Source: Negativicutes bacterium
GTDB taxonomy: Bacteria > Bacillota > Negativicutes > UBA1444
Assembly (NCBI GenBank): GCA_963665275.2
Contig: CAXXIN010000003.1
Span: 160,001 to 224,000, forward strand
Length of the DNA stretch: 64,000 nucleotides
Reading direction: 5' to 3'
The notes beneath the pieces are model-generated. The model ran no database searches. It had not been told where the DNA came from and was given only the letters and a program-made list of their open reading frames with translations. The translations under genes were made by a program, and so were the position numbers. Positions 35,233 through 53,004 of the stretch are shown here, one piece after another. Position 1 is the first letter of the stretch; each line of letters opens with the position of its first letter.

Positions 35233-35790
35233 TCACATCCACCGGCGATAGCCCGGCAACTCCAAATCAAAGGCGCAGAGAATTTTCCCAATGATGTGGT
35301 GGATGTGCTCCTCCACCGTAGCCGGTCGGTTGTAGAAACTGAGAACAGGCGGCAAGATCATGGCGCCCAGTTCCGCCAGCGTCAGCATATTTCGCAAATG
35401 GATCGGGGAAAGCGGCGACTCTCTGGCAACCAGCACCAGCCTCCGTCTTTCTTTGAGAGTCACATCGGCGGCCCGCAGCAGTAAACTGTCGGAATACCCG
35501 GTAGCAATTCCGGCCACGGTTTTCATACTGCAGGGAACAATCACCATTCCTGCCGTCTTAAAAGTGCCGCTGGAAATGCATGCACCAATATCGTCTATAG
35601 AATGGACGTGTGATGCCATCGCTCGTACTGTCTCGATGGAGTAGTCCGTCTCCATCCGGATGGTCTGTTCGGCTGCCCGGGACAAAATCAGATGGGTCTC
35701 CCAATCCTCAAACTGTTGCAACGCTTTCAAAAGCCCGATCCCGATTAACGCGCCACTTGCGCCGCTCATGCCTACAATTAATCTGTTCAT
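35233..35790 (-). CDS. ubiX: Flavin prenyltransferase
   Basis: GMSGASG, PCSMKT, RAADVTLKERR, RESPL, FY; start 35790. Confidence 0.93.
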   Translation of the reverse strand: MNRLIVGMSGASGALIGIGLLKALQQFEDWETHLILSRAAEQTIRMETDYSIETVRAMASHVHSIDDIGACISSGTFKTAGMVIVPCSMKTVAGIATGYSDSLLLRAADVTLKERRRLVLVARESPLSPIHLRNMLTLAELGAMILPPVLSFYNRPATVEEHIHHIIGKILCAFDLELPGYRRWM

Positions 35791-35791
35791 A

Positions 35792-36250
35792 TCACGCCGA
35801 ACCTTTCGCTTCCAGATATTTTTGAATGGCCCGTATCCGGCCCGCATACCCGGAACATCGGCACAGATTCCCGTTGATATAGTGCTTGATCGCGGCTTCC
35901 GACGGCTCGATACCTTCCCGCTGCATCGCCAGCACGGTCATCACCAGACCCGGCGAACAAAATCCGCATTGCTCGGCGCCTTCGGCAACCAAAAACTCGG
36001 CGAATTCGGTCGCAGCCGCCTGAACGCCTTCAATCGTCGTTACCTGTTTTCCCTGAACCCGCACTGCGAGTGTGGCACAGGACAAAATGGGTTTCTCGTC
36101 GACCCATATTGTGCAGATCCCGCAAGAACCGGTATCGCAGCTTTGTTTCAGACTGAGCAGACCCTGCTTGCGCAATACGGTCAGCAAGGAATCGTCACAG
36201 GCTGCATCCAGTTGCACCGATTTCCCATTAAGCACGAATTCTATTTGCAT
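35792..36250 (-). CDS. Xanthine-dehydrogenase-family 2x[2Fe-2S] subunit
   Basis: CDTGSCGICT...C, QCGFCSPG, NLCRC. Confidence 0.93.
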   Translation of the reverse strand: MQIEFVLNGKSVQLDAACDDSLLTVLRKQGLLSLKQSCDTGSCGICTIWVDEKPILSCATLAVRVQGKQVTTIEGVQAAATEFAEFLVAEGAEQCGFCSPGLVMTVLAMQREGIEPSEAAIKHYINGNLCRCSGYAGRIRAIQKYLEAKGSA

Positions 36251-37041
36251 GCAATCACTTCCTCAATCGCCCGCTTCACCAAAACTGGGCACACCATCTT
36301 GCGATAAACCGCCCCGGTCTTCATCGTAGCGCCAAAGCTCATTTCATCAGCGGCCATCGCCGCAGCCCGCGCTATTTCATCCGGCCCGACATCTGCGCCG
36401 GCATTCAAATAGTCGGCAGCCGCCCGCGCCGACCTCGCCACCGCCGGCCGGGCGCCGACAGCGATTCTCCAGCCCCTGCCGGAATGGCAAACCGCGACAT
36501 TGATCAAGGCAAAATCACCGGTAGAATTTCGCACTGCACGAAATGCCCCAACGGCCTCTCCGGCTGGCAAAATCATTTTCTTAATGATTTCTTTACCGGC
36601 TTTTCGTTGCAGGTATTCTTCCAACGGGATTTTACCAACATTATAAAGTCCCACTTCGGCATCCATCGCCACCAGCGCGCACAACAAGTCTGAGAAGCCA
36701 TAGCGTCCGGCTGCAGTCCCTCCAATCGTGGCCTGATTTCTCACCTGTACTCCGGCCACGCCGCTTGCAGCCAGCGGCAGCATCCCGGAAAAATGACGTT
36801 GCAGCAGCGGTGAGACTTCGATTTCTCTGAGAGTTGTCATTGCGCCGATTTCAATATGATCTTCCGTTTCACGGATATATTGCAAGTCCAACCCGGAAAG
36901 ATCAATGGCCGTTCCAATCGACCGCGACCCCAGGCGCAAAAAAGCATAGCCGCCCAAAATCGCATTGCGCTCATCCGACAGCAATAGATGCTGGGCATGC
37001 TCCAAACTTTCAGCCTTAGCATACTGCGAAATGGCAGTCAC
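36241..37041 (-). CDS. Xanthine-dehydrogenase-family FAD subunit (YgfM-like)
   Basis: ILGG, IGAMTTL, VRNQATIGG, FSD, YR. Confidence 0.9.
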   Translation of the reverse strand: MTAISQYAKAESLEHAQHLLLSDERNAILGGYAFLRLGSRSIGTAIDLSGLDLQYIRETEDHIEIGAMTTLREIEVSPLLQRHFSGMLPLAASGVAGVQVRNQATIGGTAAGRYGFSDLLCALVAMDAEVGLYNVGKIPLEEYLQRKAGKEIIKKMILPAGEAVGAFRAVRNSTGDFALINVAVCHSGRGWRIAVGARPAVARSARAAADYLNAGADVGPDEIARAAAMAADEMSFGATMKTGAVYRKMVCPVLVKRAIEEVIACK

Positions 37042-37042
37042 T

Positions 37043-39367
37043 CTATCTCACCTCTTCCGTCTGAGATTTTTTCTGCTGCTGCAGCGCCGCCAGCACTGAC
37101 TCCGGCGTAATCGGCAGCCGGGTCATCCTCACGCCTGTCGCGTTGAATACGGCATCCACAATGGCTGCCGACGGGGTATGGAAAACCACTTCGCCGATAG
37201 ACTTGGCGCCGAATGGGCCTGTCGGTTCATAGCTGGGCACAAACTCCACCGTCAATTGGCCGATATCTTCCGGGCAGGGGATCTTGTATTGCATGAAATC
37301 ATCCGTCAGCAATCGCCCGCGCTGGTCATAACAGACTTCTTCAAACAAAGCAAACCCAATCCCTTGTACCAGGCCGCCTTCCGCTTGAATCCTCGCCAGG
37401 TTGGGATTAATCAAGGTTCCACAGTCAATCGTCGCCGCATAATGCAGCAATTGGACCTTGCCTGTCCCCACATCCACTTCCACTTCGGCGAATCCGGCCA
37501 CAAAAGGCGGCGGGCTGGTTTCTCCGCCATAAGTCGCGATTACCGCCAGTTGGTTGCGCCCTTTAAATGAAGTCAGTTGATAAGCCAGTTCGTCCAAGGT
37601 TACCCGCCAGCTGCCGCCTTTCACGGATAGAATCTCGCCGTCAAACTCCATCACTGCGTCCGGGTCGCCGCAAAGAACCTTGCCACCGTCCAAGATTTTC
37701 TCTCGTAGCAGTCGGGCCGCTTTGACGACGGCATTTCCCGTCACGTACGTAGTGGAAGATGCATAGGCGCCTGTTTCGTAAGGTGTCAGATCGGTGTCGG
37801 CAACCTGCAGGTTCACGCGATCCAACGTGGTTTGCAGCACCTCCGCCGCCATCTGCGCCAAAACCGTGTCGCTGCCTGTTCCCAGATCGGCGGCCCCCAC
37901 CGCCAGCGTATAGCTGCCGTCATAATTGAACCGAATTTCGGCAACGGCGGTATCCGAATTGGCGATACCGGTTCCATGCATCGCGATGGACATGCCGACG
38001 GCGCGAAACTTGTCGGGCCCGCTCGCTTGCCGTGGATAAATGCCGTCCCAGCCGATCAGTTCTTTGCCACGTCTAATGCATTGTTCCAGCGTACTGCTTT
38101 GCACCACGGCCGGCTGTTCTTTCGTTGACCCCGCTAAAAACGGATGAGCCTGCCCTTGGCGAATAATATTTATGTCCCGAAAAACAGAGGGGTCGATCTG
38201 CAATTTATCCGCCAGTTCGTTGACGGCGGATTCAATGGAAAAATTGGTCTGCGGCGCACCGAATCCACGGAAAGCGCCTGCCGGAGTTTTGTTGGTATAG
38301 ACTGCCTTTGCTTTGTAGCGCAAGGCACGGGGCGTATGATAAATCGGCAGCGTATTGTGTCCGCCCACATGCAGCACATCCGGTGCATGTTCGCCATACG
38401 CGCCGGTGTCCGCCAGCACGTCGAGGTCGATAGCCTGCAAGATGCCGTCAAGGCTTGCGCCTGCCCTCACCCGAATCTTCATTGCATGCCGTGTATTCGT
38501 GCAAGCGAAGCACTCGGAACGACTCAGAGTAATCTGGGCGGTTTTGCCTGTCCTGAGCGTCACCAACGCTGGGTATACTTCAACCAACGCAATATTTTTC
38601 CCGCCAAACCCGCCGCCAATCCGGGGTTTGATCACATGAATCCGATGCTGGGGAATATCGAGCGCCCGGGCCATGATCCGTTGAACATTAAAGGCCGACT
38701 GAGTCGCCGTAACCACTTGCAATCGCCCACGAGAATCCAGACTGGTAAACGCCCGATGGGTTTCCATCATCGCATGGGCCTGCGCTTGGGTATAGTAGGT
38801 CCGATCCACCACGGCGGCGCATTGAGCAAGTTCCGCATCAACATCGCCCAGAGTGTGGAGGTTGACGCCGGCGATATTCCGTGCAGGATTCTTGCCGATA
38901 TTGAAGTGTGCAAGGACATAATCGTCAGAATGCAGCACGCTTGCGTGCCCTTCCGCCGACTCCATGTCTAGGACAGGTTCAAGAACCTCATATTCAACCT
39001 GAATGAGTTTCAACGCAGCGACTGCTGTTTCTTCATCGGCAGCCGCCACCGCCGCCACAGGATCGCCGACATATCGCACAAGCGTATCGAAAATCAGCCG
39101 GTCATAGGGAGACGTTTCCGGATAAGCTTCCGCCGCAATCGTATACCGGATGTTCGGCGCATCCCTGTATGTCAAAACGCAGGCCACCCCATCCAATCGC
39201 TCTGCCTGCTCTGTATCAATAGACTTGATCCGCGCAAAAGCATACGGGCTTCGCAGCAGTTTCACGCACAATGCCTCTCCCGGCAGCAAATCTTCTACAT
39301 ATGCAGGTTTGCCGGTAGCCAGATGCAACCCGTCCAATTTGGCAATTGATTGCGATACGTGTCTCAT
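37043..39367 (-). CDS. Xanthine-dehydrogenase-family molybdopterin subunit (XdhD-like)
   Basis: HAMME, GGGFGGK, AFRGFGAPQ, QAEGG, catalytic GAKSIGE; start 39367 (ATGA overlap). Confidence 0.93.
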   Translation of the reverse strand: MRHVSQSIAKLDGLHLATGKPAYVEDLLPGEALCVKLLRSPYAFARIKSIDTEQAERLDGVACVLTYRDAPNIRYTIAAEAYPETSPYDRLIFDTLVRYVGDPVAAVAAADEETAVAALKLIQVEYEVLEPVLDMESAEGHASVLHSDDYVLAHFNIGKNPARNIAGVNLHTLGDVDAELAQCAAVVDRTYYTQAQAHAMMETHRAFTSLDSRGRLQVVTATQSAFNVQRIMARALDIPQHRIHVIKPRIGGGFGGKNIALVEVYPALVTLRTGKTAQITLSRSECFACTNTRHAMKIRVRAGASLDGILQAIDLDVLADTGAYGEHAPDVLHVGGHNTLPIYHTPRALRYKAKAVYTNKTPAGAFRGFGAPQTNFSIESAVNELADKLQIDPSVFRDINIIRQGQAHPFLAGSTKEQPAVVQSSTLEQCIRRGKELIGWDGIYPRQASGPDKFRAVGMSIAMHGTGIANSDTAVAEIRFNYDGSYTLAVGAADLGTGSDTVLAQMAAEVLQTTLDRVNLQVADTDLTPYETGAYASSTTYVTGNAVVKAARLLREKILDGGKVLCGDPDAVMEFDGEILSVKGGSWRVTLDELAYQLTSFKGRNQLAVIATYGGETSPPPFVAGFAEVEVDVGTGKVQLLHYAATIDCGTLINPNLARIQAEGGLVQGIGFALFEEVCYDQRGRLLTDDFMQYKIPCPEDIGQLTVEFVPSYEPTGPFGAKSIGEVVFHTPSAAIVDAVFNATGVRMTRLPITPESVLAALQQQKKSQTEEVR

Positions 39368-39984
39368 TGCCCGGCCCGCGCCTTTTTCCCCGCATCGTAG
39401 ATCAACGCGACTTCGGCGAGCTTGTGCACCAATTTTTGCGCCATGTCCAGGGCGCGCACGTCTTCTCGCGCCCCTTCCTCCATTTTGTCCTGCGACCACA
39501 GCATAGCGCCCGCATAACCGCCCACTTCATTGCTCACCACATTGATTTCACGCGCCAGCATCAGATTGATAATCGTGTTTACCGCCATTTCCTGACCGCC
39601 GTTCCGCGTACCACCGGCAGCAACAGCTACGCCGAACTTATTGCGCAGTTTTCCCGGAAAAACATGGAATAACGGCCGCATCCGGCTAAAAAACGCCAAT
39701 AATTGAGGCGTCACCGAATAAACATAAACCGGCGAGCCGATGAGATAGGCGTCCGCGTCTATGAACTCCTGCAGCAGCTCCTGCATGTCGTCCTTGATAA
39801 TGCACCATGTCTGATTTTTTTTGCAATAATTGCAGCCGTTGCAGGGCGCAATTTTTTTCCCCTGCAGTGAAATCAGGCTTACGGAAACCTCCGGCATGTC
39901 GGCGAGACTGTCCAGCGCCTGCCGGATCAGATATTCGGTAGCCCCTTTACGTGGGCTGCCGCATAATCCCAGTATTTTTACCAT
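39364..39984 (-). CDS. Iron-sulfur flavoprotein / NAD(P)H-dependent FMN reductase family
   Basis: GSPRKGAT, CNGCNYC-x5-C, GSPVY, GGTRNGGQE. Confidence 0.88.
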   Translation of the reverse strand: MVKILGLCGSPRKGATEYLIRQALDSLADMPEVSVSLISLQGKKIAPCNGCNYCKKNQTWCIIKDDMQELLQEFIDADAYLIGSPVYVYSVTPQLLAFFSRMRPLFHVFPGKLRNKFGVAVAAGGTRNGGQEMAVNTIINLMLAREINVVSNEVGGYAGAMLWSQDKMEEGAREDVRALDMAQKLVHKLAEVALIYDAGKKARAGQ

Positions 39985-40015
39985 GCGAGTCGCCTCCCTT
40001 CATTCTTGGGTGTCA

Positions 40016-41356
40016 TTATGATTCAAGATATTGTTTCAAATCGACTTCCGGATATTTAACCCGCTCCAGGCCCTTGCTATCCTCACTCAACGTCGCATCA
40101 ATCCCCATTTTGGTCTGCACGCCGCGATGATCGGAGCACGGATCCAACTCATGTCCCTGCGCGTTGGGAATGTAAAAAATGTCCCGCTCCGGAATGACCC
40201 GGTTGGAAACCGCCCACATGACATCCGCCGCATTGAAAATATCCACGTCTTCATCGACAACGATTACATTTTTGATATTGACGTAGGTGATCATCGCCGC
40301 CAGAGCTACATTCTTGGGTTCGCCCGGATTTTTTTTCTTCATCTGGATAATCGCCATGAACCCGCTGCCGTAGGGCGGGATATGAACATTGACGACGCCG
40401 GAGCTGACATACTTGGCGAACTTCTTCAGCAAGGGTTCGCGGGGCAAAACATTGCCCAAATTGATATGTTCGAAGGAAGCGCCATTGATGGTCTGGTAAA
40501 TAGCATCCGTACGATGCGTAATTGCAGTAACTTTCAGGATCGGGCTGCTCCAGGGCCGACTGTAGTGTCCTGTGAACTCGCCGAGAGGCCCCTCGTCCTC
40601 CCGTTGATACGGCTGAATTTCTCCCTCGATCACGAACTCGGCGGTGGCCGGAACATAGATATCCGAAGTAATGCATTTCACTACATCGATAGCTTTGCCT
40701 CGGATCGCCCCGGCGATTTCCGTTTCGTCGCCATCATATCGGAGCCCGGCGGCGATATAGATGACCGGGTCTGCGCCGCAAACCACGGCGATGGGCAACG
40801 GTTTTCCCTCTTTTTCAGCCTCATCATAGAAATCTTTCAAGTGCCGCCACTCGTTGATCATGATGCCGAGGGTGTTCTTCCCCTTGACCTGCATGCGCTG
40901 GAATGACAAGTTTTGCCGTAAGTCATGCAGTCCCTTGCTGACGACTACGCCGCCGGTGATGAACGGGCCGCCGTCTTTGGGCGCATGCTGGGGGATAGGG
41001 ATGCGATTCAGGTCGACCGCATCGCCCTGAATAATATGCTCCTGGCAAGGCGCCGCTGCCGTAACGTTCGGCTTAATCGGTTTTTCCAGGCACTCCGCCA
41101 GATAATCGTTGATTCGTTCCTTGGGGCAGCCCAGCGCAAGTGAAATCCGGTCCATCGACCCCAAAATTCCACCACAGGCCTGAAACTCTCTATCCTTCAC
41201 CTTAGCGAACAATCCCGCGCCGCGATCCTGCTTTTCCAGCGTCGCCAATACAGAGCCGAGTTCATACTGCCAGTTCACTTCCTTTGGAATCGTTGCCAGC
41301 TGATTATTTTGCCGCAGCAGCTCCAGAAAAGATCTCAAATCGTTGATTTCATTCAT
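40016..41356 (-). CDS. UbiD-family prFMN-dependent (de)carboxylase
   Basis: DLRSFL, QRMQ, EGPLGEFTGHY, VVDEDVD, ELDP, KMGIDAT; start 41356 by AGGAG RBS. Confidence 0.93.
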   Translation of the reverse strand: MNEINDLRSFLELLRQNNQLATIPKEVNWQYELGSVLATLEKQDRGAGLFAKVKDREFQACGGILGSMDRISLALGCPKERINDYLAECLEKPIKPNVTAAAPCQEHIIQGDAVDLNRIPIPQHAPKDGGPFITGGVVVSKGLHDLRQNLSFQRMQVKGKNTLGIMINEWRHLKDFYDEAEKEGKPLPIAVVCGADPVIYIAAGLRYDGDETEIAGAIRGKAIDVVKCITSDIYVPATAEFVIEGEIQPYQREDEGPLGEFTGHYSRPWSSPILKVTAITHRTDAIYQTINGASFEHINLGNVLPREPLLKKFAKYVSSGVVNVHIPPYGSGFMAIIQMKKKNPGEPKNVALAAMITYVNIKNVIVVDEDVDIFNAADVMWAVSNRVIPERDIFYIPNAQGHELDPCSDHRGVQTKMGIDATLSEDSKGLERVKYPEVDLKQYLES

Positions 41357-41400
41357 ATCACACACTCCTGCTCCATTTTTTGATTCGCCTGCACATCCAT

Positions 41401-42699
41401 TTAGGCAAGCACCCTGTTCAAATATTGCCCCTGTCCCCCCAGAAAAACCCCGTCCCGAACTACGAAATTCCCCCGGCAAAGCGTGTCTCTCACCTTGCCG
41501 GTTACAGACATCCCCGCATAAGGTGAATAAACATTGTCCCGAGAACGAATTGGCTCCATCATTGCCGGATCATAGACCACGATATCCGCATCCGACCCCG
41601 GCAGAAGAGTTCCTTTACGCGGGTACAAACCGTGCGCTTGCGCAACATTTTTCGTAAATTTATCGATGATCTTCGCCCCGAAACGCTGGTACATGAGGGC
41701 AAAGGCGTGATCCATTCCGCCGATCCCCATGGGAATATCTCCGGTATATGCATGTTTTTTGTCGATGTCATGAAAGGCGCAATGATCGCTTCCTATCGTA
41801 TGAATCCTGTCGATTTGCTCTGCGAGCTGGTCCGATTCCGACTGAGAGCGCAGCGGCGGCGTCATGGTGAACAGGTAACCGTTGCGCCTGATATAGCATT
41901 CTGAGGAAAGCGAGAAATAGTGCGGACAACTCTCGAGAATCACATTGGTTCCCAGCAACTGGCCGTAATTTTCACGCAGGCGGGCTACTGTCGTCCCGCA
42001 ACTCACATGAACAATATACAACCAACCGTCCCGATAATTCGCCATCTCAGCCAACTTGACCACTTCGCTGATTTCGGCCAGAGCGGGACGCGAGAGTTCA
42101 TGGTCACGCACGAGAACTTTGCCTTTGTTCAACAATCCGTCATTTTCCGCATGCACCAACACACGAATGCGTTCCACCTTGGAAATCTCAAGCATGTTGT
42201 CGATGAACGCGTCGGAGGAAAAGCAGCCCTGCTCCACATAAGTCGTATAGAGTTTCATAGTAGGCATGCCCAGTTCTTTAGCCTTACGGACCATCGATAA
42301 TGCGGTATCTTTGGGATTGGCCGCCGATGCATGCAGGGAATAATCAACCACGCTGCTCGTCGCCAATTCCCGGCGCCGCTGAAAAAGCTGTTCCAAGTGC
42401 TCCACCGAACCGGCGCAATCCAAAAAATCGATGAAGGTTGTCACTCCCCCCATAGCCGCCGCTACCGACCCGCTGTAGAAAGTGTCCGCCGTCGTATATT
42501 TTCCCGCATCCATCGAGAAATGTACATGGGGATCGATAAATCCGGGCAAAACCATTTTTCCGGCAACGTCATATTCTTGGCGGCATGCGGCAAAGCCTTC
42601 AGATATTGCAGCAATTTTACCGCTTTTCACGTATAGATTCCCGCATGTCCAGCTTCCATCCTGATAAATTTCGCCGTTGAGGATTCCCAAATCATACAT
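41401..42699 (-). CDS. Dihydropyrimidinase/hydantoinase-like cyclic amidohydrolase
   Basis: PGFIDPHVH, KLYTTY (carbamylated Lys), VHAEN, IVHVS, PPLR, GSDHCAF. Confidence 0.88.
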   Translation of the reverse strand: MYDLGILNGEIYQDGSWTCGNLYVKSGKIAAISEGFAACRQEYDVAGKMVLPGFIDPHVHFSMDAGKYTTADTFYSGSVAAAMGGVTTFIDFLDCAGSVEHLEQLFQRRRELATSSVVDYSLHASAANPKDTALSMVRKAKELGMPTMKLYTTYVEQGCFSSDAFIDNMLEISKVERIRVLVHAENDGLLNKGKVLVRDHELSRPALAEISEVVKLAEMANYRDGWLYIVHVSCGTTVARLRENYGQLLGTNVILESCPHYFSLSSECYIRRNGYLFTMTPPLRSQSESDQLAEQIDRIHTIGSDHCAFHDIDKKHAYTGDIPMGIGGMDHAFALMYQRFGAKIIDKFTKNVAQAHGLYPRKGTLLPGSDADIVVYDPAMMEPIRSRDNVYSPYAGMSVTGKVRDTLCRGNFVVRDGVFLGGQGQYLNRVLA

Positions 42700-46056: not shown

Positions 46057-46079
46057 CCAATTTTCTCCTCACCGACGTT

Positions 46080-47009
46080 CTATTTTCCTTCCTTGGCATA
46101 GGCTTTTCCCATCGCGCCAGGCCCCACCGTGCGACCGACAACGCCGGCCAGCACCAACATCGTCAGCACATACGGCAGCATCAGAAAAAATTGATAGGGG
46201 ATTTCAATACCGAACGCCTGCAGCCGAAGTTGCAGGGCTTCCGCCGCACCGAATAAAAGCGAGGCGCCAAAGATTCCGAACGGATTCCACTTGCCGACAG
46301 TGACGGTGGACCAGGCAACATAGCCGCGCCCGGCCGTCATTTTTTCCATGAAAACAGACAACTGGGCAATCGACAAAAACGCCCCGCCGAGCCCGCCCAG
46401 CAATCCAGAAATAATAATCGCCGTATAGCGGGTTTTTATTACGTTGATCCCCACACTGTCAGCTGCCCGCGGATGCTCGCCCACGGCTCGCAATGCCAGC
46501 CCGAACGGCGTGCGATAAATCACATAATAGCAAATGGGAACCAATAGAAAGGCGATGTAAACCAACGGATTCTGGTTGAAGAAAATCTTCCCCACCACAG
46601 GAATGTCACTGAGAAAGGGAATCGGCACATCCTGAAAGGCCACAACCTTGGAGGGTTTCCCGCCGATTCCGAATAGAATATTCAGCAGATAGCTGCTCAA
46701 CCCCAGGAACAGAATATTGATTCCAGTGCCTGCAACCACTTGGTCCACCTTGGCCGTAATGCTCATGAATCCCAGAATCAAAGACGCCATCATGCCGCCC
46801 AACATCCCCATTAGCGCGCCCACCCAAGGGCTTCCCGATATGTAGGAGCCGTAGACGCCCATGAATGCGCCCATGATCATGATTCCTTCCAGGGCAAAAT
46901 TGATAATTCCTGCCCTGGCTGTGAACAACCCGCCCAGGCCCGCCAGCACAATCGGAGTACTCATCCGTATGGTGGCCTGAATAAATCCCATGATGTTATT
47001 TGCATCCAT
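46080..47009 (-). CDS. Nucleoside-type (CUT2/BMP) ABC permease
   Basis: GIINFALEG, LRAVGEHP, TAGRGY, LPYVLT. Confidence 0.9.
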   Translation of the reverse strand: MDANNIMGFIQATIRMSTPIVLAGLGGLFTARAGIINFALEGIMIMGAFMGVYGSYISGSPWVGALMGMLGGMMASLILGFMSITAKVDQVVAGTGINILFLGLSSYLLNILFGIGGKPSKVVAFQDVPIPFLSDIPVVGKIFFNQNPLVYIAFLLVPICYYVIYRTPFGLALRAVGEHPRAADSVGINVIKTRYTAIIISGLLGGLGGAFLSIAQLSVFMEKMTAGRGYVAWSTVTVGKWNPFGIFGASLLFGAAEALQLRLQAFGIEIPYQFFLMLPYVLTMLVLAGVVGRTVGPGAMGKAYAKEGK

Positions 47010-48117
47010 TCAAATCATCCTCCCGGGTCATCCGAGTTGATACCCGAACTATGTAATTGCGAAATAGCGCATCCATCAAAACAAACAGAATGACGAGTCC
47101 CTGGATAACGAACACCAATGAAGCCGGAACCTGAACGGTACGTTGCATCATGTTGGCGCCAACCCGCAATGCCCCGAAAAACAGGGACGCAATTACGACG
47201 CCGGCTGGGTGCAGTTTACCCAGCAAGGCAACTGCCATCGCATCAAATCCGTACTCGGAGCTAAAGCCATTCATCAGGCGATGGTGCAGAGCAGAAATTT
47301 CGACCATTCCCGCCAGCCCCGCAAAAACCCCTGACAAGCTCATCGCCAAAATCAGGTTCTTTTGCACATGAATGCCGCTGTTCTTCGCCGCCGTCTGGCT
47401 AAAGCCGACAGCCCGCATCTGGTACCCGATCGGTGAGCGCCACAACAGGAAATATACGACCAATACACTGATTATGGCAATGCCTACCCCTGCATGCAAC
47501 CGCGTCCCTGTCACGAGCGGGGGAAGCCACGCTTCCGGCGCAATCATGGCGGATTGGGGGAAATATCCCGGCGGTTCACGCAGGGGAACATCCAACAGAT
47601 AGGCTACAAAAAAGATGGCCACATAGTTCAGCATAATCGTATTGATGACTTCGGAAACGCCCAGTCTCGCCTTGAGATATCCGGGAATCGCACCCCACAG
47701 ACCGCCTCCGAGCATTCCTGCGATCATAACGATCGGCAGGATGATAAGCCCTGGCAATCCCTGAAAATAAATACCGGCCAGTGTAGCGAATAGAGCGCCT
47801 ATGATCATCTGCCCCTCTGAACCTACAGACACCAGACCTGTACGATAGGAAATGGTCAGCCCCAAAGCAGCCAACAACAGCGGCGTTGCTTTGACAAGCG
47901 TTTCTGAAAAGCTGCGGAAACTTCCAAACGCTCCATCCCACATGCTGGCATAGGCTTCGATCGGATTGGCGCCTGACGCCATGACAATCAGCGACGCCAC
48001 TAGCAGCGCAAGCGTCAGGGCAACCACCGGCCCCATAATCTCGGGCAGCAGTTTAACAATTTTTTGCTTCCGCTCAATTTCGATGCGGAACTTTCCCAGA
48101 TTCAGACCCATTTGCAT
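46996..48117 (-). CDS. Nucleoside-type ABC permease
   Basis: GSEGQ, EVINTIMLNY, GFDAMAVALLG. Confidence 0.9.
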   Translation of the reverse strand: MQMGLNLGKFRIEIERKQKIVKLLPEIMGPVVALTLALLVASLIVMASGANPIEAYASMWDGAFGSFRSFSETLVKATPLLLAALGLTISYRTGLVSVGSEGQMIIGALFATLAGIYFQGLPGLIILPIVMIAGMLGGGLWGAIPGYLKARLGVSEVINTIMLNYVAIFFVAYLLDVPLREPPGYFPQSAMIAPEAWLPPLVTGTRLHAGVGIAIISVLVVYFLLWRSPIGYQMRAVGFSQTAAKNSGIHVQKNLILAMSLSGVFAGLAGMVEISALHHRLMNGFSSEYGFDAMAVALLGKLHPAGVVIASLFFGALRVGANMMQRTVQVPASLVFVIQGLVILFVLMDALFRNYIVRVSTRMTREDDLNGCK

Positions 48118-49643
48118 TCACCCGCCTCTTTGCGGGCGCCGGCGCCACCCATCATCAACCCGATATCCGTCATGGAAACCTGTCCAGGAACAAACTCGCC
48201 CATAATTTTCCCCTCATAGAGTACGACAACGCGATCAGAGACCAACAGCACTTCATCCAGATCCGCCGATATCATCAACACTGCAGCACCCTTTTCTTTT
48301 TCTGCCAATAGTCGGCGATGAACGAATTCCGTTGCTCCGATATCCAGCCCACGCGTCGGTTGCACCGCGAGTATAAAATGCGGATCCCGGCTTATTTCCC
48401 GCGCCAGCACTACTTTTTGCTGATTACCGCCCGAAAAATTCCGCACCAGCGCATCATGGCACGGCGGCCTCACATCGAACTCCTGCACCAGGTTTTTGCT
48501 TATTTCATCCATAGCCCGGGGGTAAAACACCCCGCGTATTGTAATCGGCTCATGATCATAAGTGTCCAGCGCCATATTCTCTGATACGGTAAAATCCAGT
48601 ACCAGTCCTTGCTTTAGGCGGTCTTCAGGAATATGGGCCATTCCGAGCTCAATGCGCTCCCTGGTTGAAACAGCGGTAATATTGCGCTCGTTAAAAACCA
48701 CTTCACCCTGCTGCACCGGCCGTAGTCCCATGATGGCTTCCGCCAGTTCACGCTGCCCATTCCCGTCAACACCGGCCACTCCCACAATTTCGCCTTTGCG
48801 TACACAGAGCGAAAACTCTTTCAGCGAAGACACCGGCAAGTCTCCTGCTGCAAAAACGTTCTTCAATTCCATCCTGGATTCCTTGCATATGACTGGCGTT
48901 TTTTCATAGGACAGGACCACGCTGCGCCCTACCATCATCGCCGCCAGCTCCTCTTTCGTGACCGCTTCCGTCTCCACTACGTTTACCAGTTCACCCGCGC
49001 GCAGCACCGTCACCCGGTTGGATATCTGCATCACTTCCCATAGCTTGTGGGAAATAAAGATGACCGACTTTCCCAGCGCCACGAATTGCCGCAGAATCAC
49101 AAATAGCTCCTGCACCTCCAGCGGCGCCAGCACTGCCGTCGGTTCGTCGAGGATCAGAATATCCGCCCCGCGATAGAGAGCCTTGATGAGTTCAACCCGT
49201 TGCTGCGCACCCACCGATAAATCTTTAACCAAACTATGGGGATCAATGCAAAAATTGAACTTGGCGCTCAATTGCCGCACTTCTTCCACTGCTTTTTCTT
49301 TGTCAATCGGCATCAATCCGGTTGCCAGGCCCAAAATCACGTTTTCCACCACGCTAAGAGTCGGAACCAGCATAAAATGTTGATGCACCATTCCTACCCC
49401 CGCTTCGATGGCATCACGCGGCGACTTGATTCCCGTCTTTTGCCCCTTAATATATATTTCGCCGGAATCTTGCAGATAGAGCCCATAGAGTATATTCATC
49501 AAAGTTGTTTTCCCGGCGCCATTTTCCCCAAGCAACGCGTGAACTTCGCCCGGCTTTACGGACAAATCGACCCCCCGGTTGGCTACAACATTGGGGAATC
49601 GCTTCACGATATTTTTCATTTCCAGGATATACTGATTATCCAT
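48102..49643 (-). CDS. Nucleoside-type ABC ATP-binding protein (double NBD)
   Basis: GENGAGKT, DEPTAVL, SGGNQQK, QPTRGLD. Confidence 0.92.
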   Translation of the reverse strand: MDNQYILEMKNIVKRFPNVVANRGVDLSVKPGEVHALLGENGAGKTTLMNILYGLYLQDSGEIYIKGQKTGIKSPRDAIEAGVGMVHQHFMLVPTLSVVENVILGLATGLMPIDKEKAVEEVRQLSAKFNFCIDPHSLVKDLSVGAQQRVELIKALYRGADILILDEPTAVLAPLEVQELFVILRQFVALGKSVIFISHKLWEVMQISNRVTVLRAGELVNVVETEAVTKEELAAMMVGRSVVLSYEKTPVICKESRMELKNVFAAGDLPVSSLKEFSLCVRKGEIVGVAGVDGNGQRELAEAIMGLRPVQQGEVVFNERNITAVSTRERIELGMAHIPEDRLKQGLVLDFTVSENMALDTYDHEPITIRGVFYPRAMDEISKNLVQEFDVRPPCHDALVRNFSGGNQQKVVLAREISRDPHFILAVQPTRGLDIGATEFVHRRLLAEKEKGAAVLMISADLDEVLLVSDRVVVLYEGKIMGEFVPGQVSMTDIGLMMGGAGARKEAGECKWV

Positions 49644-49706
49644 AATTCCTCCTTATCAGGAGGGGAAAGGCCGCAAAACCATTCCCCTCCCTTTCGGTGA
49701 CCAAAA

Positions 49707-50756
49707 TTATTTCTCGAAAATCGACTTCGGTAAGGCGCCCTGCTGTTTCAGAGAACCGTCTTTAATTTTGGCGATTACTTCTTTGAGCTTATCCGCAGCG
49801 CCGGCAGGCAGTTTGCTTTCATTGCCGTGGTAGTCGGAGAGGAAGATAGCGTTTTCATTCACGCCCATCAGATAGAGAGCCGGTTTGGCTTCGTTTTTCA
49901 CCGCTTTGGAAATAATCGTTTCTACCATGAAGGTTACGCTTTGGATGGCTGAGACAAACACGGTGTCCGGAGCCACGTTGTATTGGTCGCTGATATAGCC
50001 AAGAGCTTTGATTTTCTTGGTCTTGGCCGCATCAATGATCCCCAGGCTCGCCTGATTCGCATTGCCGCTGACAACGTCGGCGCCCTGTTCAATCATGGCC
50101 ATGGCCATTTCCTTCCCTTTGGCAACATCAGACATCGTTTCGGTAAATCCAGTCAACACTTTTACGTTCGGATTGACATATTTGGCGCCAGCCTCAAACC
50201 CTTTCAGCCCGTCTTGAATATGGGGCAATTTGGTGCCACCGATCATTCCGACGGTATTGGTTTTCGTAATCAGTCCAGCCACTGCTCCAGCCAAAAATCC
50301 GGTCTGCGGCGTATTGAAACGCAGGGAAAGCATATTGGGCTCTTGGAATCCATTACCGTTGACGACCGCAAACGTCACCTTGGGATACTGGGGTGCAACC
50401 ACTTTGACCACGTCAGAGAACTCGAAGCCGTGCAGAATCACTAGGTTGTATCCTTTATCTGCATAGTCGCGGATAACGGATTCAAAATCCGGCTGCGGAA
50501 CATTTTCTGTATAGGCCGCGTCCACTTTGTATTTGTCTTTGGCCGCCATGAGACCTTTATAGGCGGACTCGTTCCAGCCAGCGTCATTGATTGGACCGGT
50601 CAAGACCATCGCCACTTTAAATGCCGCCGAAGCTGCCGGTTTAGCCTCTTTTTTAGGTTCTTCCTTTTTTGCTCCGCCACAGCCGACCAGAGCCATACCG
50701 GCAAACAGAACCAACATTGCCCACACCGTCAGTTGAATCAAATTTTTCTTTTTCAT
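49707..50756 (-). CDS. BMP-family substrate-binding lipoprotein
   Basis: Lipobox LVGC, GPINDAGWN, GFLAGAVA, GKEMA..MIEQGADV; start 50756. Confidence 0.9.
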   Translation of the reverse strand: MKKKNLIQLTVWAMLVLFAGMALVGCGGAKKEEPKKEAKPAASAAFKVAMVLTGPINDAGWNESAYKGLMAAKDKYKVDAAYTENVPQPDFESVIRDYADKGYNLVILHGFEFSDVVKVVAPQYPKVTFAVVNGNGFQEPNMLSLRFNTPQTGFLAGAVAGLITKTNTVGMIGGTKLPHIQDGLKGFEAGAKYVNPNVKVLTGFTETMSDVAKGKEMAMAMIEQGADVVSGNANQASLGIIDAAKTKKIKALGYISDQYNVAPDTVFVSAIQSVTFMVETIISKAVKNEAKPALYLMGVNENAIFLSDYHGNESKLPAGAADKLKEVIAKIKDGSLKQQGALPKSIFEK

Positions 50757-50793
50757 CCCAAAAACCTCCTCTTTCATTTGCTTGCCAGTCGTG

Positions 50794-52182
50794 CTACTCT
50801 TTTGAACCGAATACCCGTTCCATTAGCTCCTGCGCCTGATGTTGCTCCACTCGCAAAATTTCTTTCTCATCAAGCGCAGGGAAATCACCGTCAACCAGTA
50901 CGGCTTTGCCATTGATCACCACCTTTTCAATCGCGTGGGCCCCGGCCGAATAGACTAAAGAAGCCACAGGATCATGAACAGGGCAGGTTCGGGCGCAGCG
51001 GCCGGAATTCAGCACAAAGAAATCCGCTTTTTTCCCGGCCTCGATCGACCCAATTTCCTGCTCCATGCCAATACCCCGGGCAGCTTCAATCGTCGCCATC
51101 TCCAGAACTTCCTGCGCCGTCATCGCCATCGGATCACAGAGAAACACTTTATGTAAAAGAGCAGTGCTCTTGAGTACTTCCAACATATCATTGCAGTTGT
51201 TGCTGGCCGCACCATCGGTGCCAAGACCAACAGTCATTCCCATTTTTCGCATTAGCGGCGCCGGAGCAACGCCGGATGCCAGATACATGTTCGAAACCGG
51301 ATTGTGGGAGACATAAACATTGTGAGCTTTAAAGGCCGCAAGTTCAGTCTCACCCATCTTCACACAGTGCACTGCGAGCAAATGGCTATCCAGCAACCCG
51401 CTCTCTTCGAAACAGGCCAGCGCGGATCGGTTGAACTTCTTACGGCAAACGGTCTCGTCGGTTTCTGTTTCGTACATGTGCATCGTGACAGGAACAGAGT
51501 ATTGTTTCGCAAATGCCCCGGTTTCCCGCAGGCCTTCCATCGACAGCGCCCAAACCCCCGCAGGCGCCAGCCATATGCGAGTCATCAGATCCGAGCGTTC
51601 GTACTTGTTCTTTAGGCGAAGAACATCGGCGAAAACCGCATCCGTTTCTTCGATCAGCTCCGAGGGGAATCCATTGTCACGGCCGGTGTTGCGAAAGCCC
51701 CGGCCATAAACCAACCGGACTCCCATATTCTTCATCACATCGATTTCCGCGTCAGACAAACACGCGACCGGATGAACCTGCATATAATCCACGACGGTTG
51801 TCACACCGCTCCGCACCGCCTCCAGAGCCCCTCCGGCAGCGGCGGCAGCCACATGATCATGCCGGATACGAATCCCTGCAGGCGCAATCACACGATGCCA
51901 CCAATTCTCCAGTGCTGTATCCGTCCCCAGCCCTTTCAACAGGTTTTGATACAAATGCGTGTGAGTATTAATCAACCCGGGAAAAACAAATTTTCCGGTT
52001 CCGTCTTCCGACTGAATATTTTTTTGTGCAGCAAGACTCTGAATTTCTTCAGTAGATCCTATCGCCACAATGCGGTCATTTTCCCACAGCAGTCCGGCGT
52101 CTTTGAGAATGCGCCGCGCCGGATCTACCGTGACGACGGTAACGTGATACAAGGCGCCGCCGGTTATTTGTTGCTCGCTCAT
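50794..52182 (-). CDS. Amidohydrolase-family deaminase (cog0402)
   Basis: PGLINTHTHLYQNLLKG, HMYE, HNPVSNMYL, GTDG; start 52182 (TAATG overlap with gntR stop). Confidence 0.9.
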   Translation of the reverse strand: MSEQQITGGALYHVTVVTVDPARRILKDAGLLWENDRIVAIGSTEEIQSLAAQKNIQSEDGTGKFVFPGLINTHTHLYQNLLKGLGTDTALENWWHRVIAPAGIRIRHDHVAAAAAGGALEAVRSGVTTVVDYMQVHPVACLSDAEIDVMKNMGVRLVYGRGFRNTGRDNGFPSELIEETDAVFADVLRLKNKYERSDLMTRIWLAPAGVWALSMEGLRETGAFAKQYSVPVTMHMYETETDETVCRKKFNRSALACFEESGLLDSHLLAVHCVKMGETELAAFKAHNVYVSHNPVSNMYLASGVAPAPLMRKMGMTVGLGTDGAASNNCNDMLEVLKSTALLHKVFLCDPMAMTAQEVLEMATIEAARGIGMEQEIGSIEAGKKADFFVLNSGRCARTCPVHDPVASLVYSAGAHAIEKVVINGKAVLVDGDFPALDEKEILRVEQHQAQELMERVFGSKE

Positions 52183-52919
52183 TACGATTTTTGCCCCCAT
52201 TTCCACAGTGTAGTCATTTTGACCAAAACCGGATTGAATTTCACCCAACTTAGGCAAATCGGCATGTCTTCCAAGGTATAGAACGTTTCTTTCCACGAGG
52301 TCATCGGAGTTCCCTTAGGCAATCCGAACAATTCGACGTCTTCTTCCTGCAAAACGGTGGGAATAAACTCCTGAATCCCCTGGGCCAGATCTCTGCGACA
52401 ATATTGCCAAATCAAAGTTCCCAGGTCGATTTCATCTTCTACCGTTTCGATGTCCTGGACGAAATATTGATACGGAATCCTGTTCTGCGCATAAATTGCA
52501 ATCTTCCCGTCGACCCAAAAAATCTTTTCATACACAACAACCATGCTGTCGGGCTTGATATTCAAGGCCGTCGTTACGATTTCATCAGCCTTTTCCAGGC
52601 GCATCGCTGAATAAGTTGCTTTAGCTTCGTATCCGCCATCCTTCAACAAATTGATGAAATCTGAATATCGATCAATTCTCATCCTGACCGTCAAGGCGCT
52701 TTGATGAATGAAATTCCCTGAGCCATGGCGTTTACTGATAATGCCCTCGGCGTTCAAATCCTGCAGGGCTTCTCGCAAAGTAGCCAGACTCACCCCAATA
52801 AGTTTCGCCAATTCATCTTCAGGCGGCAGTTTCGCGCCGCTGATTTTTTTCTGCCGTATCATTTCCATGATCACGTCTTTGCCATATTGCGCCCGCGTGG
52901 AAACTTGATTTTTGTACAG
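52182..52919 (-). CDS. GntR/HutC-family (UTRA) regulator; start uncertain (GTG 52874 or CTG 52919)
   Basis: KLPPEDELAKLIGVSLATLREAL...GSGNF followed by UTRA-like domain. Confidence 0.85.
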   Translation of the reverse strand: MYKNQVSTRAQYGKDVIMEMIRQKKISGAKLPPEDELAKLIGVSLATLREALQDLNAEGIISKRHGSGNFIHQSALTVRMRIDRYSDFINLLKDGGYEAKATYSAMRLEKADEIVTTALNIKPDSMVVVYEKIFWVDGKIAIYAQNRIPYQYFVQDIETVEDEIDLGTLIWQYCRRDLAQGIQEFIPTVLQEEDVELFGLPKGTPMTSWKETFYTLEDMPICLSWVKFNPVLVKMTTLWKWGQKS

Positions 52920-52959: not shown

Positions 52960-53004
52960 TTGTTTGCGCAGTTTTATGCTTCCTTTTCTCATCAATAAGC
53001 TAAA

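Follow-up and report, generated by a model that had tools for sequence, protein, structure and literature searches.

A candidate operon for anaerobic pteridine catabolism centered on a distinct clade of UbiD decarboxylases in a Negativicutes bacterium

The minus strand of the window analyzed here, the whole stretch of 64,000 nucleotides at positions 160,001 to 224,000 of the forward strand of contig CAXXIN010000003.1 (Negativicutes bacterium, assembly GCA_963665275.2), carries 16 co-directional, mostly overlapping open reading frames (ORFs) between positions 35233 and 52874 or 52919, depending on the start codon of the first gene. We propose, with moderate confidence, that these genes form an operon through which a pteridine-type heterocycle of the pterin/lumazine family is taken up and broken down without oxygen; within this reading, the most likely substrate of the encoded UbiD-family decarboxylase is pterin- or lumazine-6-carboxylate. 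The gene set is a mosaic: its front half (the aminohydrolase AH1, a DHFR-fold protein, UbiD, UbiX and an iron-sulfur flavoprotein) is the conserved core of 52 loci in other genomes, and its back half is a diverged version of the reductive purine ring-degradation module. A pteridine is favored because the dihydroneopterin aldolase FolB and a methenyl-tetrahydromethanopterin-cyclohydrolase-like (Mch-like) gene in related loci, the DHFR fold, the relatives of AH1 and the diverged purine module all point in this direction. The enzyme classes and their intact motifs are observed directly; all substrate assignments are inferred. The operon consists of the following genes, listed in the direction of transcription:

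52182..52919, minus strand: GntR/HutC-type regulator with a UTRA effector domain (Pfam GntR 48.9 bits, UTRA 41.9 bits)
50794..52296, minus strand: AH1, cog0402-type aminohydrolase, candidate 2-amino (pterin-type) deaminase (Amidohydro_1, 204 bits)
49707..50777, minus strand: BMP/PnrA-family substrate-binding lipoprotein of an ATP-binding cassette (ABC) importer (Pfam Bmp, 226.5 bits)
48102..49643, minus strand: ATPase of the ABC importer, two nucleotide-binding domains (ABC_tran, two stretches)
46996..48117, minus strand: permease 1 of the ABC importer (BPD_transp_2, 159 bits)
46080..47009, minus strand: permease 2 of the ABC importer (BPD_transp_2, 148 bits)
45133..46056, minus strand: divergent RibD_C/DHFR-fold reductase, 307 amino acids (Pfam RibD_C, 34.4 bits, cut-off 24.1)
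43790..45136, minus strand: AH2, SsnA-like aminohydrolase, candidate ring-opening hydrolase (Amidohydro_1)
42692..43789, minus strand: PreA/PydA-like flavin mononucleotide (FMN) protein with two [4Fe-4S] clusters and no flavin adenine dinucleotide (FAD)/NAD domain, UacX-like (DHO_dh and Fer4)
41401..42699, minus strand: cyclic amidohydrolase, hydantoinase/dihydropyrimidinase-like, HyuA-like (Amidohydro_1; TIGR02033, 270.5 bits, cut-off 393)
40016..41479, minus strand: UbiD-family prenylated FMN (prFMN) decarboxylase of a distinct clade (UbiD_N, UbiD and UbiD_C all present)
39364..39984, minus strand: iron-sulfur flavoprotein of the FMN_red fold (FMN_red, 90.6 bits)
37043..39499, minus strand: large, molybdopterin-binding subunit of a molybdenum (Mo) enzyme, XdhA-type hydroxylase/dehydroxylase (MoCoBD_1/2, Ald_Xan_dh_C)
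36241..37041, minus strand: medium, FAD-binding subunit of the Mo enzyme (FAD_binding_5 93.5 bits, CO_deh_flav_C 34 bits)
35792..36250, minus strand: small subunit of the Mo enzyme, two [2Fe-2S] clusters (Fer2_2 74 bits, Fer2 34.6 bits)
35233..35847, minus strand: UbiX flavin prenyltransferase, prFMN supply for UbiD (Flavoprotein 142 bits; NF004685 247 bits, cut-off 188)

Pfam and NCBIfam profile searches recovered the expected domains in all 16 ORFs. An earlier sequence-only reading of this DNA had described 16 tightly coupled genes with these domains as a catabolic operon for an N-heterocycle, and both its gene list and that general reading are borne out by the ORF listing and the profile matches. 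Junctions across the operon are overlaps or gaps of 0-16 nt: 4 nt between the RibD_C and AH2 genes, 0 between the AH2 and PreA-like genes, 8 between the PreA-like and hydantoinase-like genes, 16 between the ATPase and the adjacent permease gene, 14 between the two permease genes and 10 between the FAD and FeS subunit genes of the Mo enzyme, with a gap of 1 nt between its large and FAD subunit genes. The longest ORFs of AH1, UbiD, the Mo large subunit and UbiX overrun their upstream neighbors; alignment with homologs places the probable true starts at M33 or M39 of AH1 (about 52200-52182), M42 of UbiD (41356), M45 of the Mo large subunit (about 39367) and M20 of UbiX (about 35790), so stop/start overlaps are expected at these junctions as well. 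For the regulator, the CTG at 52919 lies in frame, six bases past GGGGGA, with a TGA upstream at 52943-52941; its use as the start codon, which the previously given upper boundary of 52919 implied and which is plausible, restores the usual GntR N-terminus. In Sporomusa sp. KB1, a single operon contains homologs of 14 of the 16 genes (43-80% identity) together with a hydantoinase at 31% identity; the grouping is not due to chance. The GC content of the operon is 51-55%, that of most of the remaining window 38-50% and that of the genome 50%.

The UbiD protein scores 373.6 bits with TIGR00148 (cut-off 244.85) and 341 with VdcC (cut-off 650). Its best match in the PDB is 6h6v (277 bits), which we take to be HmfF and which presumably acts on the 2-carboxylate of a five-membered ring. 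A scan of one genome per species identified orthologs with 57-79% identity to the window UbiD at 52 loci, in Bacillota (Oscillospiraceae, Lachnospiraceae, Peptococcaceae, Sporomusa, Halanaerobiales), Spirochaetota and one metagenome-assembled genome (MAG) of Fusobacteriota; a further locus (L053), a fragmented UbiD-like stretch of 30% identity in an alphaproteobacterial MAG, was excluded from every count. An ortholog is absent from all 40 related genomes examined, 11 of which belong to the genus of the host, and 10 of the 40 carry only paralogs of 35-38% identity; given that distant phyla do possess the gene, its distribution is patchy, which probably reflects horizontal spread. A maximum-likelihood tree was built from 44 UbiD sequences, 40 of them clade members, with 13 of the 52 loci left out because the UbiD was truncated or miscalled. 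In this tree the clade is monophyletic (support 100/99) and is the sister group of the HmfF-like UbiDs from hmf clusters (99/91), to which the window protein is 34-40% identical. The UbiD of a cluster on S. meliloti pSymB, which served in all our comparisons as a stand-in for the sequences (LA1_0150, LuDH) of the aerobic pterin/lumazine cluster I of Cupriavidus sp. LA-1 discussed below, falls outside both groups and is 31% identical to the window protein. The window UbiD has conserved acidic and basic residues in common with the HmfF-like and cluster-I-like enzymes. Neighborhood types are intermixed on the tree, and the group closest to the window includes loci that hold only genes for UbiD, UbiX, an iron-dependent alcohol dehydrogenase (Fe-ADH) and an aldehyde dehydrogenase (ALDH).

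Analysis of the genomic neighborhoods of this clade had been suggested as a check on the original reading and, when run over the 52 loci, turned up the pterin-linked FolB, Fe-ADH and aldehyde oxidizers. For the counts, ORFs within 10 kb of UbiD were clustered, and cluster representatives and singletons were annotated; 24 of the 52 loci are at least 20 kb long. UbiX adjoins UbiD in 27 loci and the iron-sulfur flavoprotein in 25, and homologs of AH1 (at least 40% identity) and of the BMP protein (at least 30% identity) are each found near UbiD in 22. Fe-ADH is present in 16 loci, the Mo large subunit in 11, a tungsten-type aldehyde:ferredoxin oxidoreductase (AFOR) in 10, and ALDH, RibD_C and a YgeY-family M20 hydrolase in nine each; AH2 and PreA homologs occur in seven loci each, a cytosine-deaminase-like hydrolase in five, a carbamoyltransferase in four, a hydantoinase and a xanthine/uracil permease in three each and a carbamate kinase in two. 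Regulators of the GntR/UTRA type (at least 30% identity) adjoin the clade in nine loci.

FolB, which as far as established is specific for dihydroneopterin-type substrates, is encoded directly beside UbiD in four of the 52 loci (L016, L034 with two copies, L048 and L050); the L050 protein scores 90.6 with TIGR00525 (cut-off 72.15), and Pfam FolB scores elsewhere are 84 and 63.7 bits. In L050, from the bacterium Marasmitruncus massiliensis, an Mch-like gene (positions 7213-8265; TIGR03120 235.7, cut-off 228.8) is found in a Bacillota operon with a cytosine-deaminase-like gene on one side and the flavoprotein, FolB and UbiD genes on the other, which hints at catabolism of methanopterin- or folate-type cofactors; no homolog of this ORF was found in the genome of the window or in the other loci. 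Taken with FolB, the alcohol dehydrogenase and the aldehyde oxidizers, the front half of the operon matches a route in which the side chain of a 6-(polyhydroxyalkyl) or 6-hydroxymethyl pterin is trimmed to a carboxyl group that is then removed.

The combination of Fe-ADH, ALDH or AFOR, UbiD and a deaminase also fits conversion of a hydroxymethyl group through a carboxyl group to hydrogen on a modified pyrimidine, the alternative already offered in the earlier reading: 5-hydroxymethyl- or 5-formyl-cytosine/uracil would be deaminated by AH1 and oxidized to 5-carboxyuracil, UbiD would release uracil, and the PreA-like protein, a dihydropyrimidinase and an M20 ureidopropionase would complete the degradation. 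The PreA-like and dihydropyrimidinase-like proteins are indeed of the classical reductive pyrimidine type, and cytosine-deaminase-like genes occur in five loci, but both proteins score below the cut-offs of the respective models (145 against 335 for PreA and 270 against 393), there is no PreT in the operon, and the PLP (pyridoxal phosphate)-dependent enzyme encoded downstream is a C-S lyase rather than a beta-alanine aminotransferase. This scheme, which offers no role for FolB, the Mch-like gene or RibD_C, leaves AH2 and the diaminopropionate lyase of Sporomusa unexplained, and a literature search found no paper tying UbiD to 5-carboxyuracil; we consider it improbable. Still less probable is the breakdown of another hydroxymethyl- or carboxy-heteroaromatic compound, such as the thiamine pyrimidine (HMP, 5-carboxylate), vitamin B6 (4-pyridoxate), a 7-deazapurine (7-carboxy-7-deazaguanine) or, for the loci without a deaminase, furans (hydroxymethylfurfural, HMF, to 2,5-furandicarboxylate). 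The HmfF-like sister group suits this proposal, as do the UbiD-UbiX-FeADH-ALDH loci (L012-L014), which would serve HMF degradation, and the weak best NCBIfam matches of the transporter are to 'putative B6 ABC' models. These matches, however, are far under the cut-offs (102 against 400 and 467 against 670), FolB and the DHFR-fold protein would have no explanation, and YgeY, carbamoyltransferase, carbamate kinase and YgeX do not fit 2-methylpyrimidine, pyridine or furan rings. Riboflavin or ribityllumazine was also considered as the substrate and ranked low.

The best NCBIfam matches of AH1 are 5'-deoxyadenosine deaminase (296 bits) and 8-oxoguanine deaminase (292), both under the cut-offs, and its best PDB matches are AtzA (4v1x), 3hpa and 8-oxoguanine deaminase (7ww2); its nearest characterized relatives include enzymes acting on 2-amino-4-oxo fused pyrimidines such as 8-oxoguanine. 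The HxH...HxxE...H...D motif is intact in both AH1 and AH2, and in AH1 it is retained in 19 sequences; there is no detectable similarity between AH1 and the product of the Amidohydro_3 gene of the S. meliloti cluster. The RibD_C protein, with only weak PDB matches (5xux, 24.6 bits), has homologs of 42-55% identity encoded between the transporter and the flavoprotein or AH1 in nine of the 52 loci, and is a candidate enzyme for reducing either the pyrazine ring or a group of the ribosylamino type. The FMN_red protein can be classified as an iron-sulfur flavoprotein, as had been read from the window alone, because the CxxCxxCx6C motif (C48/C51/C54/C61) is invariant across 21 sequences. In L050 (8109-9554), the flavoprotein gene is preceded by a gene for a conserved protein of approximately 186-260 amino acids without a Pfam match; in L016 (38-1216), this protein is apparently fused to the flavoprotein in a single ORF of 392 amino acids, with 88% identity over the shared part.

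The back half, that is, the Mo enzyme, the PreA-like protein, AH2 and the hydantoinase-like protein, consists of diverged paralogs of a canonical reductive purine/urate cluster that the same genome carries at C6:64000-76800 (locus L059). That cluster encodes SsnA (634 bits, cut-off 444), a selenium-dependent xanthine dehydrogenase (TIGR03311, 1252, cut-off 830), a hydantoinase (405.6, cut-off 393, in an ORF of only 369 amino acids that is perhaps truncated), a BMP-ABC importer, a PreA/UacX-like reductase and YqeC. Identity to the C6 counterparts is 29% for AH2, 38% for the PreA-like protein, 33% for the hydantoinase-like protein and 30% for the Mo subunit; for the importer it is 31% (BMP), 47% (ATPase) and 43-44% (permeases). 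The window operon resembles a diverged duplicate of the C6 cluster plus extra genes. AH2 scores 223.5 and 212.8 with the NCBIfam SsnA models (cut-offs 444 and 455.5) and 233 with N-ethylammeline chlorohydrolase, and in seven of the 52 loci it is paired with PreA or a PreA-GltD fusion. The PreA-like protein, with two conserved four-cysteine motifs and 145 bits with the PreA model (cut-off 335), is by its domain composition a candidate dearomatizing reductase. The hydantoinase-like protein, for which D-hydantoinases are the best PDB matches, retains an intact binuclear site (HxH, K149, H183, H231, D305), and the same operon position is occupied by bona fide hydantoinases in Sporomusa (567.8 bits) and L010. 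The Mo large subunit scores 617.8 with XdhA_XDHase (cut-off 780), the small subunit 134 with XdhC_XDHase (cut-off 217); the best PDB match of the large subunit is 4-hydroxybenzoyl-CoA reductase (315 bits), and it is 53% identical to a paralog on C18 of its own genome. Upstream of the UbiD-Mo operon in L010 (2542-8680) lie genes for a SelD-like AIR-synthase-related protein, MoCF_biosynth, YqeC, a MobA-like transferase and XdhC; since maturation genes of this kind are characteristic of molybdenum hydroxylases that depend on selenium, the labile selenium cofactor may also be present in the Mo enzyme of this system.

A separate canonical SsnA (613-640 bits) is also present in all four of the other genomes tested that contain UbiD loci of the AH2/PreA type (L011, L050, L046 and L049). 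The coexistence of a canonical copy with the diverged module in five of five genomes argues for a purine-like but different fused heterocycle as the substrate of the latter. It also bears on the possibility, rather unlikely in our estimate, that the operon degrades a substituted purine or imidazole, for example by the clostridial (Rabinowitz) route from xanthine through ureidoimidazole carboxylate to aminoimidazole carboxylate, in which UbiD would decarboxylate the aminoimidazole carboxylate and AH1 would deaminate aminoimidazole, or that the substrate is some other carboxylated or aminated purine. The importer is of the BMP purine/nucleoside type, xanthine/uracil permeases accompany three of the 52 loci, the Mo enzyme is of the XdhA kind, guanine and 8-oxoguanine deaminases are similar to the hydrolases, and YgeY, carbamoyltransferase and carbamate kinase are among the neighbors; moreover, according to a 2012 article, the genes of the clostridial pathway were still unassigned at that time (PMC3519856), and a literature search found no later assignment. 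However, the genome already contains a canonical purine cluster, the operon lacks formiminotransferase and glycine-pathway genes, and this explanation has no role for FolB, Fe-ADH, ALDH, AFOR or the DHFR-fold neighbors. Each of these three rival explanations (modified pyrimidine, other heteroaromatic compound, purine or imidazole) leaves several conserved neighbors unexplained.

The lower part of the pathway is likely encoded in the same genome at C12:140110-145484 (locus L058), where an operon behind an amino-acid-type ABC transporter contains genes for a ThrC-like PLP enzyme, an Amidohydro_3 D-aminoacylase-like (UacY-like) protein, a YgeY-family hydrolase (432.9, cut-off 321) and a CysK-like PLP enzyme; the UbiD operons of L010 and L011 themselves contain counterparts of these genes, at 43-52% identity. 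Sporomusa sp. KB1 carries the entire lower pathway, with YgeW as the one missing gene, in the same operon, the order of which is GntR-GntR-AH1-BMP-ABC-UbiD-Mo(L,M,S)-flavoprotein followed by YgeY-Amidohydro_3-AH2-PreA-hydantoinase-diaminopropionate ammonia-lyase (626, cut-off 532)-UbiX.

Under the pteridine reading, the pterin would be imported by the BMP-ABC system, and AH1 would strip its 2-amino group to yield a compound of the lumazine type. UbiD, with prFMN made by UbiX, would then remove a ring carboxyl group, most likely at C6, that would be the remnant of the trimmed side chain of folate-, neopterin- or biopterin-derived pterins. In sister loci this trimming could be accomplished by FolB, Fe-ADH and ALDH or AFOR encoded beside UbiD, and in the window the Mo enzyme may oxidize the aldehyde. 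The DHFR-fold reductase and the iron-sulfur flavoprotein would control how oxidized the pyrazine ring is or else support the prFMN system, and the Mo enzyme, the ferredoxin-type PreA/UacX-like reductase, AH2 and the hydantoinase-like protein would hydroxylate or dehydroxylate, dearomatize and open both rings, as in the reductive urate pathway. The resulting ureido or N-acyl diamino-acid products would be finished by the YgeY, D-aminoacylase-like and PLP enzymes of the C12 cluster, perhaps with the PatB-type lyase encoded downstream of the operon. The GntR/UTRA protein is the likely repressor.

Several observations weigh against this reading. At 31% identity to a cluster-I-like (presumed xanthine-8-carboxylate) decarboxylase and 34-37% to HmfF-like enzymes, homology names no substrate for the window UbiD, and the ligands for which BMP proteins are best known are nucleosides and purines. 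The window is not among the four loci, out of 52, with FolB beside UbiD, and its operon itself contains no Fe-ADH, ALDH or AFOR gene. The Fe-ADH and ALDH neighbors in other loci match no curated equivalog, with the exception of an AldA-like protein in L036 and L042 (727, cut-off 500), the substrates of which could be side-chain aldehydes and not the pterin itself. Finally, no homolog of YgeX (diaminopropionate ammonia-lyase) or YgeW was found in the 92.6% complete genome of the window, and a lower pathway ending in 2,3-diaminopropionate equally fits a purine substrate.

A stronger version of the pteridine reading, which we regard as possible but doubtful, is that the operon represents the first set of genes for the catabolism of pterins without oxygen, comprising a new prFMN-dependent pterin- or lumazine-6-carboxylate decarboxylase, paralogs of the urate enzymes specialized for pteridines that open both rings, and an iron-sulfur flavoprotein as the redox partner that works without O2. 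In that case UbiD would take off the one side-chain carbon still left on pterins derived from folate, neopterin or biopterin, and the flavoprotein would allow either prFMN to mature or the pterin to change its oxidation state in the absence of O2. To our knowledge, maturation of prFMN without O2 is still unexplained for the UbiD enzymes of anaerobes. In the literature searched, no anaerobic pterin route was found, and only one article (PMC12391406) links UbiD or prFMN with pteridine catabolism.

The regions that flank the operon contain a possible 17th gene and several candidate control elements:

33600..33643, minus strand: strong intrinsic terminator with a stem of 20 bp and a run of T behind it, at which the transcription unit likely ends (3' end)
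33837..35030, minus strand: PatB-family PLP-dependent C-S (beta-elimination) lyase (TIGR04350 367.6, cut-off 340)
52874 or 52919, minus strand: start codon of the regulator, canonical GTG at 52874, probably CTG at 52919, from a reading of the start region
52941..53134, minus strand: leader/control region with four features
52941-52959, minus strand: perfect 7+5+7 palindrome TCATTGA/TCAATGA (N5 spacer) directly before the GntR start, candidate operator
53052-53011, minus strand: 19-bp hairpin followed by a T run, strongly terminator-like
53133-53105, minus strand: promoter-like site, overlapped by 11-nt inverted arms at 53100-53134

The 202-nt gap between UbiX and the PatB-family gene contains no strong match to a terminator or promoter, and the PatB-family gene may be co-transcribed with the operon because the next strong terminator on the same strand comes only after it. 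It may thus be a 17th operon gene, although its membership is uncertain and no homolog was found among the 52 UbiD-clade loci. By analogy, the lyase would hold the position of the diaminopropionate ammonia-lyase of Sporomusa; it could be a non-orthologous beta-elimination enzyme for the end product of the pathway or be unrelated. At the other end, the hairpin at 53052-53011, located between the promoter-like site and the start of the regulator, either terminates the upstream operon or serves as an attenuator; matches to the promoter consensus across the control region are no more frequent than in shuffled sequence. A riboswitch or leader RNA was considered as a clue to the ligand and dropped: at the gathering threshold, Rfam gave no relevant match in the window and 11 loci, with no family reaching the threshold in the window and the matches obtained limited to two tRNAs and one glycine riboswitch distant from the operon in L001. 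Among the importer components, the BMP protein has PDB relatives in 7x0r ('Lbp'), BmpA/BmpD and the atrazine/purine-type binding protein 6pi5, and the ATPase scores 466.7 with NF047930 (cut-off 670).

Directly upstream, at 53327-61514 on the minus strand, lies a separate DeoR-regulated gene set with a TRAP transporter, an FGGY kinase, a zinc-dependent alcohol dehydrogenase, a DeoC/LacD-type aldolase and a 2-hydroxyacid dehydrogenase. Weak aldolase homologs (26-33%) and FGGY or glycerol/glycerate kinases are also encoded near UbiD in L031, L033, L039, L034 and L015. Such enzymes might process a side-chain product of the polyol or glycolaldehyde kind, or their presence might be coincidental. Elsewhere in the window, an intact Mutator-family transposase (13138-14364, minus strand; Pfam 405 bits) is flanked by two GntR/FCD regulators and adjoins a peptide-type ABC transporter with a URO-D-like gene.

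Pterins are nitrogen-rich compounds that occur in every cell and in animal excreta, and include folate fragments, neopterin, biopterin, molybdopterin products, methanopterin and insect pigments. The only genetically defined route for their degradation is aerobic and dates from 2025, and the operon and its 52 sister loci, including those of named strains such as Sporomusa sp. KB1, Marasmitruncus massiliensis and Pseudoflavonifractor spp., are concrete, testable candidates for an anaerobic counterpart. If the proposal is correct, the substrate range of prFMN decarboxylases would extend to a new class, the reductive urate enzyme set would be a reusable module for other fused N-heterocycles, and the genes would offer a way to follow what becomes of folate and neopterin catabolites in guts and digesters.

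The closest parallel among known systems is the aerobic route of Cupriavidus sp. LA-1, the cluster I of which consists of PDA, LuDH, DHLI, XCDC (a UbiD) and UbiX (Doi, Maeda & Takaya 2025, Commun Biol, PMC12391406). As described in that article, a pterin deaminase converts pterins to lumazines, a three-subunit Mo lumazine dehydrogenase yields 6,7-dihydroxylumazine, an Amidohydro_2 alpha/beta isomerase with a GTPase helper produces xanthine-8-carboxylate, and UbiD with UbiX forms xanthine; a cytosine-deaminase-like enzyme also has pterin deaminase activity, and the article does not treat anaerobes, Bacillota or 6-substituted pterins (PMC12391406). In the literature searched, pterin/lumazine degradation is the only characterized pathway in which a deaminase and a Mo hydroxylase occur together with an amidohydrolase-type enzyme and UbiD/UbiX. 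At the level of enzyme classes, the window resembles cluster I in having a candidate deaminase, a three-subunit Mo/FAD/FeS enzyme, an amidohydrolase-superfamily enzyme, UbiD/UbiX, and a dedicated importer and regulators. The two differ in that cluster I is aerobic and proteobacterial whereas the host of the window is anaerobic, in the UbiD clade, in the importer (BMP-ABC in the window, permeases in cluster I), in the absence from the operon of the Amidohydro_2 isomerase and the GTPase chaperone, and in the additional genes of the window for the iron-sulfur flavoprotein, the DHFR-fold reductase and the PreA/SsnA/hydantoinase-like ring-degradation proteins. The S. meliloti stand-in comprises two Amidohydro_2 genes, UbiD, UbiX, a permease, Mo subunits and an Amidohydro_3 gene; its Mo large subunit, standing in for LuDH, is 35% identical to that of the window. 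With the S. meliloti isomerase homolog as the tblastn query, no match was found in 53 loci or in the genome of the window, and there is no PF04909 gene in the operon, the six PF04909 matches elsewhere in the genome all being distant from it. One Amidohydro_2 frame in this genome (C18:276769-277582) is broken by a single in-frame TGA and may represent a selenoprotein, a frameshift or a pseudogene. Because the UbiD is only 31% identical and no isomerase homolog was found, the window is not a member of the LA-1 cluster family.

A Cupriavidus-like route in an anaerobe, in which AH1 deaminates, the Mo enzyme produces 6,7-dihydroxylumazine, the hydantoinase-like protein or AH2 contracts the ring, and UbiD/UbiX converts xanthine-8-carboxylate to xanthine for reductive purine degradation, is accordingly unlikely, even though the operon contains all four enzyme classes and the lower pathway of Sporomusa is of the urate type. 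UbiD lies beside the Mo enzyme genes in L011 and L050, directly upstream of them, and in the window, with the flavoprotein gene in between; furthermore, the closest structure, 6h6v, presumably acts on a five-membered-ring 2-carboxylate, as which xanthine-8-carboxylate also qualifies. Apart from the divergence of UbiD, its placement on the tree and the missing isomerase, this route is difficult to reconcile with the 41 of 52 loci in which no Mo large subunit is within reach (28 of the 52 are shorter than 20 kb), and, with xanthine as the product, the diverged set of AH2, PreA, hydantoinase and Mo enzyme would be redundant given the canonical SsnA cluster in five of five genomes. The original mapping of the enzymes onto these four steps therefore has to be revised: action of UbiD on xanthine-8-carboxylate is not backed by orthology, the clade being nearer to HmfF-like enzymes, and many orthologous loci have alcohol and aldehyde oxidizers in place of the Mo enzyme. 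Pteridines do stand as the best-supported substrate class, though on evidence other than that of the earlier reading, and the label 'undescribed' has to be qualified, since genes have now been assigned to the four-step aerobic route (PMC12391406); the operon shares the enzyme classes of that characterized pathway without being orthologous to it.

The reductive urate (2,8-dioxopurine) pathway, as outlined in two preprints (10.1101/2025.04.24.650524, 10.1101/2025.05.19.654654), comprises XdhD/XdhAC, YgfK or UacX, SsnA, HyuA, YgeW or UacY, YgeY and YgeX: the Mo enzyme dehydroxylates urate, YgfK or the UacX of C. difficile dearomatizes the ring, and YgeW or the D-aminoacylase-like UacY, followed by YgeY and YgeX, leads to pyruvate. 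The window matches this pathway in logic and enzyme families, with a Mo (de)hydroxylase, a flavin/Fe-S dearomatizing reductase of the UacX type, a cog0402 candidate ring-opening hydrolase and a hydantoinase-like protein, and the Sporomusa ortholog adds YgeY, the D-aminoacylase-like hydrolase and YgeX. The described architecture of the C. difficile UacX, a PydA-like PF01180 protein without an FAD domain (10.1101/2025.05.19.654654), is that of the window PF01180 FMN protein, which has two [4Fe-4S] clusters, lacks an FAD domain and is encoded directly after AH2. The PreA-like protein is better read as a UacX/YgfK-like ring-reduction enzyme, and the second 'deaminase' (AH2) and the cyclic amidohydrolase as SsnA-like and HyuA-like ring-opening enzymes; none of the three has the look of a funnel for reduced pterins. 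AH2 nevertheless falls below the cut-offs of both models for SsnA, the ring-opening hydrolase that Li et al. use as the marker of the reductive urate cluster, and the window operon contains no genes for YgeW or UacY, YgeY and YgeX, with YgeY, the D-aminoacylase-like protein and two PLP enzymes encoded on C12. Compared with the urate cluster, the window has AH1, RibD_C, UbiD, UbiX and the iron-sulfur flavoprotein in addition, none of which is mentioned in either preprint (no occurrence of UbiD, decarboxylase, prenylated or BMP).

The nearest characterized UbiD group is HmfF/HmfG, the 2,5-furandicarboxylate decarboxylase of HMF degraders, represented in our comparison by the hmf clusters of Dinoroseobacter and Cupriavidus plasmids (UbiD identity to the window protein 34-37%), in which UbiX is likewise paired with alcohol and aldehyde oxidation upstream of decarboxylation. 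The window lacks the furoyl-CoA synthetase, GMC oxidase and enoyl-CoA hydratase of that system and has N-heterocycle enzymes as neighbors; its UbiD belongs to a separate clade, and hmf genes, which are present in L054 and L055, are absent from its vicinity. With the reductive pyrimidine pathway (PreT/PreA or PydA, dihydropyrimidinase, ureidopropionase) the window shares the succession of a PreA-like and a dihydropyrimidinase-like gene, but differs in scores under the equivalog cut-offs, the absence of PreT and the SsnA-like and Mo-enzyme context. Compared with all these systems, the enzyme logic of the operon is already known from the 2025 work on aerobic soil bacteria and on gut urate degradation, and what is new is the anaerobic setting, the distinct UbiD clade with its iron-sulfur flavoprotein and DHFR-fold partners, and the joining of a prFMN decarboxylation front end to a paralogous reductive ring-opening module.

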